64,000 bases of DNA from Thermoplasmatota archaeon (GTDB lineage: Archaea > Thermoplasmatota > Thermoplasmata > UBA10834), in the NCBI GenBank assembly GCA_040751795.1, contig JBFMHR010000002.1:256001-320000 (forward strand), written 5' to 3'. This document shows, piece by piece, positions 48,401-63,402 of this stretch (position 1 is its first letter; the number at the start of each line of letters is the position of its first letter). Made by a program: the position numbers and the translations under genes. The notes under the pieces were generated by a model. The model was not told the origin of the DNA and searched no databases. It saw only the letters and a list, made by a program, of their open reading frames with translations.

Positions 48401-49042
48401 TCACTGCGACGCCAGGTCCGCGACCGGGCTGACGGCGAAGTAGACGCCGAACACCACCATCAGCGCCCCGCACGCCCCGAAGACCACCTCGTGCACGAGG
48501 GGCGTCCAGAGGTGCCTGCTCCTGAAGACCGCGAAGGACGTGAACGAGTACCAGGCTAGGTCGCAGCTCCAGTGCACCACCGCGAACACGACCACCACTA
48601 TCGCGCCGAACTCCTCCGCCGTGAATATCAGCAGAGCGCCGACCGTCGCCCACCAGAGGAAGAAGTAGGGGTTCGCCGAGGTCGTGAAGGCGCCGGCGAC
48701 CAAGGCGCTTTCCGGGAGGGAGTCCTTCCCCGTGACGGCTATCTGCTTCCTGGCGCGGATCATCATCACTCCCATGAACGCGAGGAGGGCCCCGCCCACG
48801 AGGCCGATGGCCGTCATGACCCTCTCGTCCTCGAAGACGAACCCGAGGCTCAGCACGATGAGGGCCATGAGCGGGAACTCGATGAGGCCGTGGCCCAGGG
48901 CGATCTTGACGCCGGCCCTCTCGTCCCTGTAGCCCTTGGCGATGGTCGCGGCCAGCACCGGCCCTGGCATCATCACCCCGGAGAACGAGATGACTATGGC
49001 CATCCCGAGGAATATCCAGACGTTCTGACTTATCGGGTCCAC
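48401..49042 (-). CDS. LysE family translocator
   Basis: SGVMMPGP, GHGLIE, ANPYFFLWW; 6 TM segments. Confidence 0.9.
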   Translation of the reverse strand: MDPISQNVWIFLGMAIVISFSGVMMPGPVLAATIAKGYRDERAGVKIALGHGLIEFPLMALIVLSLGFVFEDERVMTAIGLVGGALLAFMGVMMIRARKQIAVTGKDSLPESALVAGAFTTSANPYFFLWWATVGALLIFTAEEFGAIVVVVFAVVHWSCDLAWYSFTSFAVFRSRHLWTPLVHEVVFGACGALMVVFGVYFAVSPVADLASQ

Positions 49043-49127
49043 TGGACCCTCACTAGGCCGCCGGGATATTTAACCCGTGCGCCGCAGGGCCCCTGGTGCT
49101 GGGTAGAAATATCCGCACGGCGTTGGG

Positions 49128-49204
49128 GAGCACCGAGTGATGAGAAGAGGGTCAGCTGAGGTCCAAAGGACCCGTGATGAGCCCTATGAGTGCTGAATCG
49201 CTCG
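49128..49204 (+). ncRNA. Box C/D guide sRNA (sR-tMet-like; predicted to guide Cm34 of pre-tRNA-Met)
   Basis: C GTGATGA 49137-43; 12-nt guide; D' CTGA 49156-59; GGTCC-AAA-GGACC hairpin; C' GTGATGA 49174-80; 12-nt guide; D CTGA 49193-96; flanking GAGC/GCTC stem. Confidence 0.9.
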
Positions 49205-49253
49205 ACAGAAACCCAGGCGCGCACGGGCGGAGCCGCCCGTGCGGCCGGCAACC

Positions 49254-49805
49254 TCAGAGCTCGAAGCCGTCGTAGTCGAGGTCGCAGATCCTCTTGAAGT
49301 ACCCGCGCGGGTGCTTGCAGTTGGGGCAGGTCTCGGGCGCCTCCTTGCCCCTGTGCATGTAGCCGCAGTTGGTGCAGAACCAGACCTCCTCCCCGTCAGA
49401 CTTGTACAGGCTCCCGTCCTTCAGCCTGTCCAGGAGGAGCTGGTACCTCTTGGCGTGGTGGTGCTCGATGCTGATCACGTGCTCGAAGAAATCTGCTGCG
49501 GCGTCGTTCCCCTCCTCGCGCGCGACCTTGGCGAACTCCGGGTACATCTTGGTCCACTCGTAGGTCTCGCCGGCGATGGCCTTCTTCAGGTTCTCCTCCG
49601 TGTCCCCGACCATCCCGAGGAGCTTCATGATCATCGCCGAGTGCTCGTACTCGTTCTCGGCGGTCTCCTCGAATATCTTGGCGATCGCCTGGTGGCCCTC
49701 CTTGTTGGCCGCCCCCGCCCATTTCGTGTACTTGGCCCTGGCCTCGCTCTCACCTGCGAGCGCGGCCTTGAGGTTCTCCTCGGTCTTGCTCACGATACCA
49801 CTCAA
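49254..49805 (-). CDS. rbr: Rubrerythrin
   Basis: ALAGES, ENEYEH, AGETYE, EHHH diiron motifs; C-terminal CTNCG..CPNC rubredoxin domain. Confidence 0.95.
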   Translation of the reverse strand: MSGIVSKTEENLKAALAGESEARAKYTKWAGAANKEGHQAIAKIFEETAENEYEHSAMIMKLLGMVGDTEENLKKAIAGETYEWTKMYPEFAKVAREEGNDAAADFFEHVISIEHHHAKRYQLLLDRLKDGSLYKSDGEEVWFCTNCGYMHRGKEAPETCPNCKHPRGYFKRICDLDYDGFEL

Positions 49806-61245: not shown

Positions 61246-63402
61246 TTGACCAGGCCCGCCCATCGACGGGCGATGCGTGTCCTGGGCCGCGCGGCGGTGT
61301 CATCGGCTTTGCTCTTCGTCCTCGCGGCATGGGGCCTGCATCCGGCCTCGGGCTCGGCGGACGCCCAGGCGCCCCCCTTGGCGGTCGCGGAGTTCTACCC
61401 ATGCGCGGTCGGCGGGGACGAGTACCTGGTGCTGTCCAGCCGCGGCGCCGAGGCCGTCAACCTCATGGGCTGGACGGTGTCCGACGGCGAGGGCTCCATC
61501 GCCCTCCTCGGCGGGCTCCTCCGGCCGGGCGAGGCGCTGTCGATCTCTGAGAACGCGTCGTCCTTCGAGCGCGCCTACGGGACGGCGCCGGACCTCCACC
61601 TCCCGTCCTGGACGTCGGGCGACGGGGCGGACGTGACGGGCACGTTCAGGCTCGCCGACTCGGGCGACGCGCTCGAGCTGAGGTCTCCCGACGGGTCGAT
61701 GGCCGACGCGGTGGCGTACGGCGAGTGCCCTGTCCCGTCCTCGGGATGGGTCGGGGACCCGATCCCTGCGCTCAGGCAGGGGGAGGTCGCCCGCCGCATC
61801 CATGTGCCGGTCCTCCAGGACACCGACACCTCTGCCGACTGGACCCCTTTCAGGGAGCACAGGTACGGCTACTCCTCGCACCCCGTCGTCTCATCCGCGG
61901 TTCCGGCGGGATGTGTGAGGTGCTTCACGAGCCCGGACTGCTCCCTCGACGTGGTCCTGGAGGCGATATCGGGCGCGTCCTCCCAGCTCAGGGTGTGCTC
62001 GTACGAGCTGTCCTCCTCGCCCGTGTGCGTCGCCCTCCTCGCCGCCGCGTCGCGGGGCGTGGACGTGAGGGTCCTGGTCGACTCGCAGCCCGTGGGAGGA
62101 ATGTCCCAGGCGCAGGTCGCGTGCCTCTCGTCCCTCGCCCGTGGCGGGGCGGAGGTGAGGGTCCTGGGCGGCGACATGGCCGACGGCGAGGTGAGGCACG
62201 TGGGCGCCCTGCACGCGAAGTACATCGTCGTCGACGGGGACACGCTCGTGGCCCTCTCCGAGAACCTCGTGGAGGACGGCGTCCCGACGGACAGGCTCTT
62301 CGGCAACAGGGGATGGGGCGTGGCCGTGGAGGACGCGTCCATCGCCTCGCACATGTCTGCCGTCTTCGACGACGACTCCCGGACCGAGAGGACGGACGTG
62401 TGGCTGTGGACCGAGGACCCGAGGTGCGACCCGCATGCGGGGCTCCCGGAAGCTCCCAGGTGCGAGCATCCCGAGGGGATGATGGGCCCTGGGGTCAGCT
62501 CGGGGGACGCGGTCGTCTCGCTGTTCCTTTCCCCGGACGCGTCCATGGCCTCGCCGTTCCTCGCGGAGGTCCTCTCAGACGCGGACGACGTCTCGTTCGA
62601 GCAGTTCCAGGCGGAGCTGGAGTGGGACACGCGGTGGTCCGGCGAGCCATTGATGAACCCCGTCGTGGAGGCGGTGGCCGACGTGATGCGCGGGGGAGGG
62701 TCCGCCCGCGGCCTCATGGACGGCCTCTGGTACAACGCCGAGGGGAACGGGGCGGTCGCCGACTATCTCTCCTCCGTCGCGCTCTCGTGCGGGCTGCCGC
62801 CGTCGTTCGGGCTGCTGGCGGAGGAGAGCCCCGTGACGGTGCTTCACAACAAGGGCCTGGTGTCCGGCGACAGGGCCGTCGTTTCGAGCAACAACTGGGT
62901 GTACGCCTCCTTCGCGAGGAACAGGGAGCTCGCCCTCGTCGTCGACGGGGGCGGCGTTTCGGAGTACTTCTCCGCGGCGTTCGAGCTGGACCGGGTGCCG
63001 GACACGTCCGCGCCCTTGGCCGACGCCGGCCCCGACATGGTGCTGGAGGCGCCGGGCGCCGTGGTCCTGGACGCATCCGCGTCCTCGGACGACCGCGCGC
63101 TGGCCAACTTCTCGTGGGACCTCGACGGGGACGGCCGGGCGGACGCGTGGGGGGAGAGCGTGTCGGCCCAGATCGCCTATGCCACGGAGGCGGCATTGAC
63201 GGTCAGGGACGCGTGGGGCAACACCGCCTCGGACACGGTGGCGGTCGCCATGGACGCGCCGGGCCAGCCGCCCCATGACCCCCCGGTGACGCCCGCGGCC
63301 GTGCCCTGGCCCCTCCCCGCCGTGGTCTCGTTGGCCATAGTCGCCCTCGCGGCGGCGCGCAAGCTTAATCTGTCACGTCAATCTACTCGTCCGAAGGGTT
63401 AG
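61246..63402 (+). CDS. Secreted phospholipase D-family protein (lamin-tail, 2x PLD, PKD domains, C-terminal TM anchor)
   Basis: Signal peptide, LTD (EFYP..DEY..NLMGWTVSDG), HAKYIVVD and HNKGLVSGD, PKD (ADAGPD..LDASASSD..FSWD), C-terminal TM. Start may be the ATG at 61273. Confidence 0.85.
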   Translation: MTRPAHRRAMRVLGRAAVSSALLFVLAAWGLHPASGSADAQAPPLAVAEFYPCAVGGDEYLVLSSRGAEAVNLMGWTVSDGEGSIALLGGLLRPGEALSISENASSFERAYGTAPDLHLPSWTSGDGADVTGTFRLADSGDALELRSPDGSMADAVAYGECPVPSSGWVGDPIPALRQGEVARRIHVPVLQDTDTSADWTPFREHRYGYSSHPVVSSAVPAGCVRCFTSPDCSLDVVLEAISGASSQLRVCSYELSSSPVCVALLAAASRGVDVRVLVDSQPVGGMSQAQVACLSSLARGGAEVRVLGGDMADGEVRHVGALHAKYIVVDGDTLVALSENLVEDGVPTDRLFGNRGWGVAVEDASIASHMSAVFDDDSRTERTDVWLWTEDPRCDPHAGLPEAPRCEHPEGMMGPGVSSGDAVVSLFLSPDASMASPFLAEVLSDADDVSFEQFQAELEWDTRWSGEPLMNPVVEAVADVMRGGGSARGLMDGLWYNAEGNGAVADYLSSVALSCGLPPSFGLLAEESPVTVLHNKGLVSGDRAVVSSNNWVYASFARNRELALVVDGGGVSEYFSAAFELDRVPDTSAPLADAGPDMVLEAPGAVVLDASASSDDRALANFSWDLDGDGRADAWGESVSAQIAYATEAALTVRDAWGNTASDTVAVAMDAPGQPPHDPPVTPAAVPWPLPAVVSLAIVALAAARKLNLSRQSTRPKG

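Follow-up and report, generated by a model that had tools for sequence, protein, structure and literature searches.

A box C/D sRNA lies between a LysE-type gene and a rubrerythrin gene

The window, a stretch of 64,000 nucleotides from the genome of a Thermoplasmatota archaeon, contains a 211-nt gap bounded by a LysE-type translocator gene (48401-49042, minus strand) and a rubrerythrin gene (49254-49805, minus strand), and inside this gap, on the plus strand, lies a box C/D sRNA. A first-pass annotation made from the letters of the window had described four consensus boxes and two 12-nt guides here, and the sequence from 49137 to 49196 bears this out. The features of the locus are as follows.

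49107-49112, plus strand: TATA-like element AAATAT, about 26-30 nt upstream of box C
About 49128-49204, plus strand: box C/D sRNA; the ends are a guess of the first-pass annotation
49137-49143, plus strand: box C, GUGAUGA, invariant in alignment A1
49144-49155, plus strand: D' guide GAAGAGGGUCAG, 12 nt; predicted target 23S rRNA helix 69, C1920 (E. coli numbering)
49156-49159, plus strand: box D', CUGA, invariant in alignment A1
49160-49172, plus strand: D'-C' hairpin GGUCC-AAA-GGACC, then CG; recognized by covariation
49175-49180, plus strand: box C', UGAUGA; recognized from the sequence and alignment A1
49181-49192, plus strand: D guide GCCCUAUGAGUG, 12 nt; predicted target C34 of intron-containing pre-tRNA-Met(CAU)
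49193-49196, plus strand: box D, CUGA; recognized from the sequence and alignment A1

All four boxes match the consensus and are invariant across 25 homologues. When both strands of the 2.05-Mb genome were scanned with the regular expression TGATGA-N10-13-CTGA-N3-25-TGATGA-N10-13-CTGA, this locus was the single site recovered; a version of the scan with relaxed boxes returned the same single site, and the four-box pattern occurred 0 times in each of 5 simulated genomes of equal size (first-order Markov). A loose C/D scan yielded 409 candidates versus 149 in the reversed genome, a difference too noisy for counting C/D sRNAs.

A run of at least five A/T bases starts between positions -36 and -24 relative to box C in all 26 homologous loci, within flanks that are otherwise G+C-rich. 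From this we infer that AAATAT at 49107-49112 is a promoter element, and its conservation suggests that the 5' end of the sRNA lies nearer 49133-49137. The terminal stem can be drawn in two alternative ways, as CGAG (49134-37) paired with CUCG (49201-04) or as GAGC (49128-31) paired with GCUC (49200-03); the minimum free energy (MFE) fold of the sRNA pairs box C itself. The window also holds a G+C-rich inverted repeat at 49216-49246, CGCACGGGCGG-AG-CCGCCCGUGCG, in the space that separates the sRNA from the 3' end of the rubrerythrin gene; this repeat could act as a terminator-like hairpin for either strand.

The sRNA and its internal stem are conserved in Thermoplasmata

Strong matches to the sRNA were found in 26 of 41 relatives, and six more gave matches to the D guide only. 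In a broader sample from the class, a signature composed of box C', the D guide and box D (at most one mismatch) was present in 166 of 401 genomes and in 53 of the 105 genera sampled; the reversed control of the same signature was represented by 0 sites among the matches listed. In other families of the class, the D guide is unchanged but its partner D' guide is quite different.

The segment between boxes D' and C' forms a hairpin in which 96.5% of alignment cells are paired. Its pair 35-45 is UA in 13 sequences, GC in 6, CG in 3 and AU in 1, with none unpaired, and the observed covariation score was reached by 0 of 500 shuffles. The closing stem of this internal motif is followed by a 3-nt bulge ahead of the GA of box C'. 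Because of the covarying closing stem and the bulge, we read the internal C'/D' motif as K-turn-like, whereas such motifs in archaea usually are K-loops. In G039, a class-level relative, a loop of 3 nt takes the place of the D'-C' hairpin.

The locus might alternatively be an unexpressed motif that arose by chance or has decayed. Contigs from three RNA libraries lie over the rubrerythrin gene, and contigs of the library X19, which is RNA only by guess, also lie on the upstream LysE-type gene; the sRNA is left uncovered, although contigs of this kind cannot show absence. Against this stand the uniqueness of the four-box pattern in the genome, the conservation over 26 loci of boxes, guides (the D' core in 21 of 26), hairpin covariation and TATA-like element, and the significant targets of both guides described below. 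We give this possibility almost no credence; at the level of sequence, the comparison confirms the sRNA as a genuine box C/D guide RNA.

The D guide pairs with an intron-containing pre-tRNA-Met

The first-pass annotation had proposed that the D guide acts on a tRNA(CAU) with an intron at position 37/38, and such a gene exists. Among 40 matches above threshold that the tRNA model RF00005 gave in the genome, one is an intron-containing tRNA(CAU) gene (G000:C34:14559-14663, minus strand; 60.7 bits), which reads ...UCGGA CUCAUA/GGGAGUUCUUCUGACCAGAUGCUCCUAGGAC/A UCCGA..., the slashes marking the splice sites. Its 31-nt intron sits at the canonical 37/38 site, begins with GGGAG and ends with GGAC. 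This gene probably encodes elongator tRNA-Met and not tRNA-Ile2(CAU), as its sequence features and the pairing itself suggest; of the other tRNA(CAU) genes, C50:9274 is presumably initiator-like, and C23:219044, which also contains an intron, presumably tRNA-Ile2-like. ARAGORN, run on the whole genome with introns allowed, reported two tRNA(CAU) genes and missed C34:14559-14663. ARAGORN also placed introns of 200-1800 nt in several tRNAs, among them a "tRNA-Pyl" whose intron would be 521 nt long, and these calls look artefactual.

With GACTCATAGGGA (ACUCAUAGGG) of this tRNA, the D guide forms an unbroken run of 10 Watson-Crick pairs. The duplex comprises A31-A37 and the first three intron bases (ACUCAUA/GGG); mismatches to the pre-tRNA remain at the two outermost guide bases, as they do as a rule in the class. 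The N+5 rule points to the G that is fifth among the guide bases counted upstream from box D; this G stands opposite C34, so that the wobble position named by the first-pass annotation is the one selected by the 10-bp duplex. A 10-nt match was attained by 468 of 20000 shuffled D guides (2.3%) when these were compared with 9.1 kb of rRNA and tRNA. The exact strings that had been put forward fared less well: the 12-mer D target and an 11-mer refutation string are absent from all tRNA genes, the duplex being 10 bp, and an exact genome search with the 12-mer CACTCATAGGGC returned the sRNA itself only. Two sites with one mismatch to CACTCATAGGGC, C12:374376 and C23:1254, were set aside; they are G+C-rich and probably coding, and neither ARAGORN nor RF00005 places a tRNA over them.

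Of the 41 relatives, 38 have a homologous tRNA gene, and across the class CTCATA is followed by GGG in 38 of the 39 tRNA sequences read (29 + 6 + 4; locus L075 was left out by a filter), the exception being G036 with GCG. Beyond GGG, the tRNA-Met intron has diverged past recognition. Since GGG is kept in 38 of 39 such divergent introns, our data support the view that the intron is retained for its share of the guide duplex. Changes at the two outer guide positions in distant families are not consistently compensated, and the working duplex is therefore the invariant 10 bp.

Drawn by hand, the pre-tRNA contains a bulge-helix-bulge-like motif with the bulges UA/G and AC/A and an outer helix of GGAG and CUCC; the MFE fold of the pre-tRNA gave no cloverleaf (z -0.28). 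The guide duplex overlaps the 5' bulge and extends into the outer helix. Because three of its pairs involve intron bases and it covers the 5' splice bulge, guide binding and splicing would be mutually exclusive, and methylation would thus come first. The same order was concluded for Haloferax, where intron bases also take part in the pairing (PMC2584109).

A second tRNA offers a partial match to the D guide. In the tRNA-Ile2-like tRNA(CAU) at G000:C23:219044-219138 (minus strand), the intron starts with AGGGAC, a near-copy of the guide site in tRNA-Met with one extra A. With the precursor sequence GGCUCAUA/AGGGAC, the D guide could form, counted by hand, a G.U pair and six Watson-Crick pairs, then one mismatch and two further pairs, and it might act on this tRNA in addition to tRNA-Met or instead of it. 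This pairing falls short of our search cut-off (10 pairs or a run of 8), and it is also under the criterion of 9 consecutive pairs for guide-target duplexes given in PMC4644070, which the two duplexes proposed here exceed with 10 pairs each, N+5 position included. We regard an action of the D guide on the Ile2-like tRNA as improbable, and the extra A of its intron may matter for discrimination by the sRNP. C34 of elongator tRNA-Met is very probably the target of the D guide, as judged from the pairing and its conservation.

The D' guide matches helix 69 of 23S rRNA

The D' guide had been left unassigned, with the suggestion that it pairs with the same intron or with another RNA. Its best match among the stable RNAs is in 23S rRNA, where it forms 10 contiguous Watson-Crick pairs with UGACCCUCUU (LSU position 1963; G000:C12:63323-63334, minus strand). 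When shuffled D' guides were compared with the same 9.1 kb of rRNA and tRNA, 248 of 20000 (1.2%) had a 10-nt match. For E. coli numbering, positions were counted from the annotated start of an E. coli 23S gene to which the region had been aligned. On this scale the D' duplex extends from U1917 to U1926 in the 3' strand of helix 69, the loop Us are 1911, 1915 and 1917, and the N+5 partner is C1920. The numbering is consistent with the helix-69 pseudouridines and A1912 as numbered in PMC2584109 and PMC4644070, and the latter describes helices 68, 69 and 71 as archaeal methylation hotspots.

The helix-69 target is present in 22 of the 24 relatives whose LSU was read; G010 has one C-to-U change, and G026 an insertion within the site. 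On the guide side, the D' core AGAGGGUCA is kept in 21 of 26 sRNAs and across four families (f1, f2, f14 and f15), with 11 contiguous pairs in G040. This includes f14 and f15, in which the tRNA-Met introns are unrelated; the introns of G039 and G040, which belong to other families, have only GGG in common with ours. As the D' guide is kept despite unrelated introns, the invariant rRNA target is the best explanation for its conservation.

The remaining five relatives (G004, G005, G006, G010 and G027) carry the variants GAAACGGGUCAG or GAACUGGGUCAG, which reduce the helix-69 duplex to 6-7 + 2 pairs; their rRNA shows no compensating change. With these variants in view, the D' guide might have no target or act on some other RNA, in which case the helix-69 match would be coincidental and the D guide alone functional. 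The combination of different D' guides with the same D guide in other families fits such a reading, as does the occurrence of the helix-69 10-mer in protein-coding DNA, TGACCCTCTT having 17 copies in the genome on both strands together. The presence of GAAACGGGUCAG in both genus g1 and family f2 could likewise hint at another constraint. However, few shuffled guides attain a match of this length, the core is maintained in four families, and helix 69 belongs to the described hotspots. An exact search of the five genomes for an alternative perfect 10-mer target of the variant guides found none, returning the sRNA and scattered matches, with zero in G006. A D' guide that is orphaned or directed elsewhere thus seems unlikely, though it is the most serious of the competing readings, and we lean towards helix 69 as the target, a choice that depends on complementarity and conservation. 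The part of the earlier proposal that pointed to another RNA would then hold, in the form of a predicted 10-bp duplex with helix 69.

Two observations accompany these searches. The variant GAAACGGGUCAG occurs in two separate lineages, genus g1 and, in family f2, G027, and G004 has GAACUGGGUCAG (loci L030-L033 and L036). The 12-mer CTGACCCTCTTC, which the first-pass annotation had derived as the D' target, has two exact sites in the genome; both look protein-coding and occur at roughly the control rate.

The other part of the earlier proposal, pairing of the D' guide with the tRNA-Met intron, comes down to a match of 6 nt. The intron loop contains CUGACC, complementary at 6 of 6 positions to the box-proximal GGUCAG of the D' guide, and one could imagine that both guides clamp the pre-tRNA-Met, the D' contact aiding the D duplex. 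GACC is present in all 25 introns of f1 and f2 that reach this part (23 from f1 and 2 from f2) while neighbouring loop bases change, and by eye it tips a small stem, UCU paired with AGA, which becomes UUU and AAA in G023. However, the f1 introns are close kin and not independent, and for a 31-nt intron and a 12-nt guide the estimated chance of any 6-mer match is about 4%. G039 and G040 have the same D' guide and introns that lack GACC; other D' guides show no complementarity to their own introns when compared by eye, and the N+5 rule would direct methylation at an intron base that is discarded. We consider a clamp of this kind quite improbable. It is equally doubtful that the intron is kept as a two-point docking handle, with the D' guide kissing the GACC mini-hairpin while also serving helix 69.

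The 23S gene itself, which lies outside the window, is 3626 nt long against a model of 2987 positions. It contains an insertion of about 695 nt (G000:C12, about 62622-63316; L130) whose product is a LAGLIDADG endonuclease of 219 aa (PF00961, 87.9 bits). The insertion immediately follows UUAAGGU and lies 5 nt downstream from the D' target. Of the 24 relatives' LSU read, 10 likewise have an insertion at this site, and the D' guide is alike in carriers and non-carriers. The insertion in the LSU of G026 (L148) is placed differently, inside the predicted D' target after UGACCCU, and not at the site of the LAGLIDADG intron.

A model for a dual guide

Taken together, these results make it likely that the sRNA is a dual guide, for C34 of tRNA-Met and C1920 of 23S rRNA. 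The independently transcribed sRNA would assemble with L7Ae, Nop5 and fibrillarin into a methylation-guide RNP. Its D guide would pair with A31-A37 and the intron GGG of pre-tRNA-Met, bringing C34 into register with the fifth guide base, where it would be 2'-O-methylated ahead of intron splicing. Its D' guide would pair with U1917-U1926 of 23S rRNA and select C1920. What the sequences show is the boxes with their spacing, the complementarities, the conservation and the genes for the proteins; that the sRNA is transcribed, enters an RNP and directs both methylations, and that splicing follows, we infer from these. If the model holds, one small RNA would mark two parts of the decoding machinery.

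Relation to known guide RNAs

A search of Rfam with the sRNA recovered no family at gathering level. Under permissive settings the best matches were all C/D families and spanned 49132-49200, with scores of 33.8 bits for sR3 (RF01133; gathering 41), 29.5 bits for sR41 (RF01126; gathering 54) and 23.2 bits for sR-tMet (RF02163; gathering 50; E 0.037); snoPyro_CD scored 15.5 bits (gathering 45). By its predicted function, the sRNA belongs with the sR-tMet-like guides, although by score it is outside the Rfam family. There is consequently a practical gap, in that the sRNA is missed by Rfam at gathering level and its target tRNA by ARAGORN.

The resemblance to haloarchaeal sR-tMet (RF02163) resides in the D guide, which is identical: GCCCUAUGAGUG agrees letter for letter with the Rfam sR-tMet consensus, in support of the sR-tMet-like, trans-acting guide that the first-pass annotation had envisaged. 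The two RNAs differ in the remainder of the molecule. All boxes of the sRNA described here are consensus, and its C'/D' motif has a covarying closing stem, whereas haloarchaeal sR-tMet reportedly has an atypical C'/D' motif and that of H. volcanii is said to carry a long 3' extension. A D' sequence like the one here, with its predicted helix-69 target, is lacking from the Rfam consensus. Haloarchaeal sR-tMet (Joardar et al. 2011, as cited in Table 1 of PMC4033218 and in PMC6601510) is likewise a separate, trans-acting C/D RNA directed at C34 of elongator pre-tRNA-Met, a precursor that has an intron and contributes some of its bases to the duplex.

Guidance of this methylation by a separately encoded RNA has a longer history. 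Grosjean et al. 2008 (PMC2584109) describe Cm34 of intron-containing tRNA-Met as guided by a separately encoded sRNA, name Pyrococcus sR49 as a predicted guide and count 18 candidates in archaeal genomes. Our literature search found no name for the sRNA in Thermoplasmata, and the 18 candidates could already include members of this class. For the elongator tRNA-Met of Thermoplasma acidophilum, which has a canonical intron, Table 1 of PMC4307237 lists Cm32 and Cm56 and no Cm34. Guiding of tRNA-Met is known from other archaea, and the sRNA is an ordinary addition in a new lineage; new here are the target gene, the 10-bp duplex, the intron GGG, the assignment of C1920 and the covarying internal stem. 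With it, the uncultured Thermoplasmata would be added to the archaea that use a guide RNA to methylate the wobble base of elongator tRNA-Met and link this step to the tRNA's intron.

Further parallels are less close. The consensus D guide of Pyrobaculum sR41 (RF01126) agrees with ours at all 10 upper-case positions of 12; Pae sR41 was later removed from the annotation for want of reads and of C'/D' boxes (PMC6009581). In humans, box C/D RNPs containing SNORD97 and SCARNA97 also act on the wobble C34 of elongator tRNA-Met(CAT), but these RNAs are eukaryotic and intron-encoded, two of them cooperate, and the tRNA is without an intron (PMC6601510). The guide for tRNA-Trp in Euryarchaeota applies the same RNP chemistry to C34 of an intron-containing pre-tRNA; it is carried by the intron of the very tRNA on which it acts (PMC2584109), whereas the sRNA here is a separate gene. 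The nucleotide predicted for the D' guide has a bacterial counterpart, since TlyA is reported to form 2'-O-methylcytidine at C1920 of helix 69; as a stand-alone protein enzyme that uses no guide RNA, TlyA is an analogue only. The second guide predicts RNA-guided Cm1920 where bacteria use the protein TlyA.

The genome encodes guide RNP proteins and a candidate guide in the tRNA-Trp intron

The genome has genes for fibrillarin (241.5 bits), a Nop-domain protein (201.5 bits) and two proteins of the L7Ae family. In the tRNA-Trp gene (G000:C23:301226-301401, minus strand), an intron of 102 nt contains the C/D-like boxes CUGA and UGAUGA together with a guide, GUAACUGGAGC, that is complementary to the tRNA's own anticodon arm; it corresponds to the C/D guide known from tRNA-Trp introns of Euryarchaeota. 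Given the protein genes and the tRNA-Trp intron guide, guided methylation of pre-tRNA is to be expected in this organism. Archaeal fibrillarin and Nop5 genes usually stand side by side; here they lie about 120 kb apart (C1:374367-374972 and C1:253122-253745).
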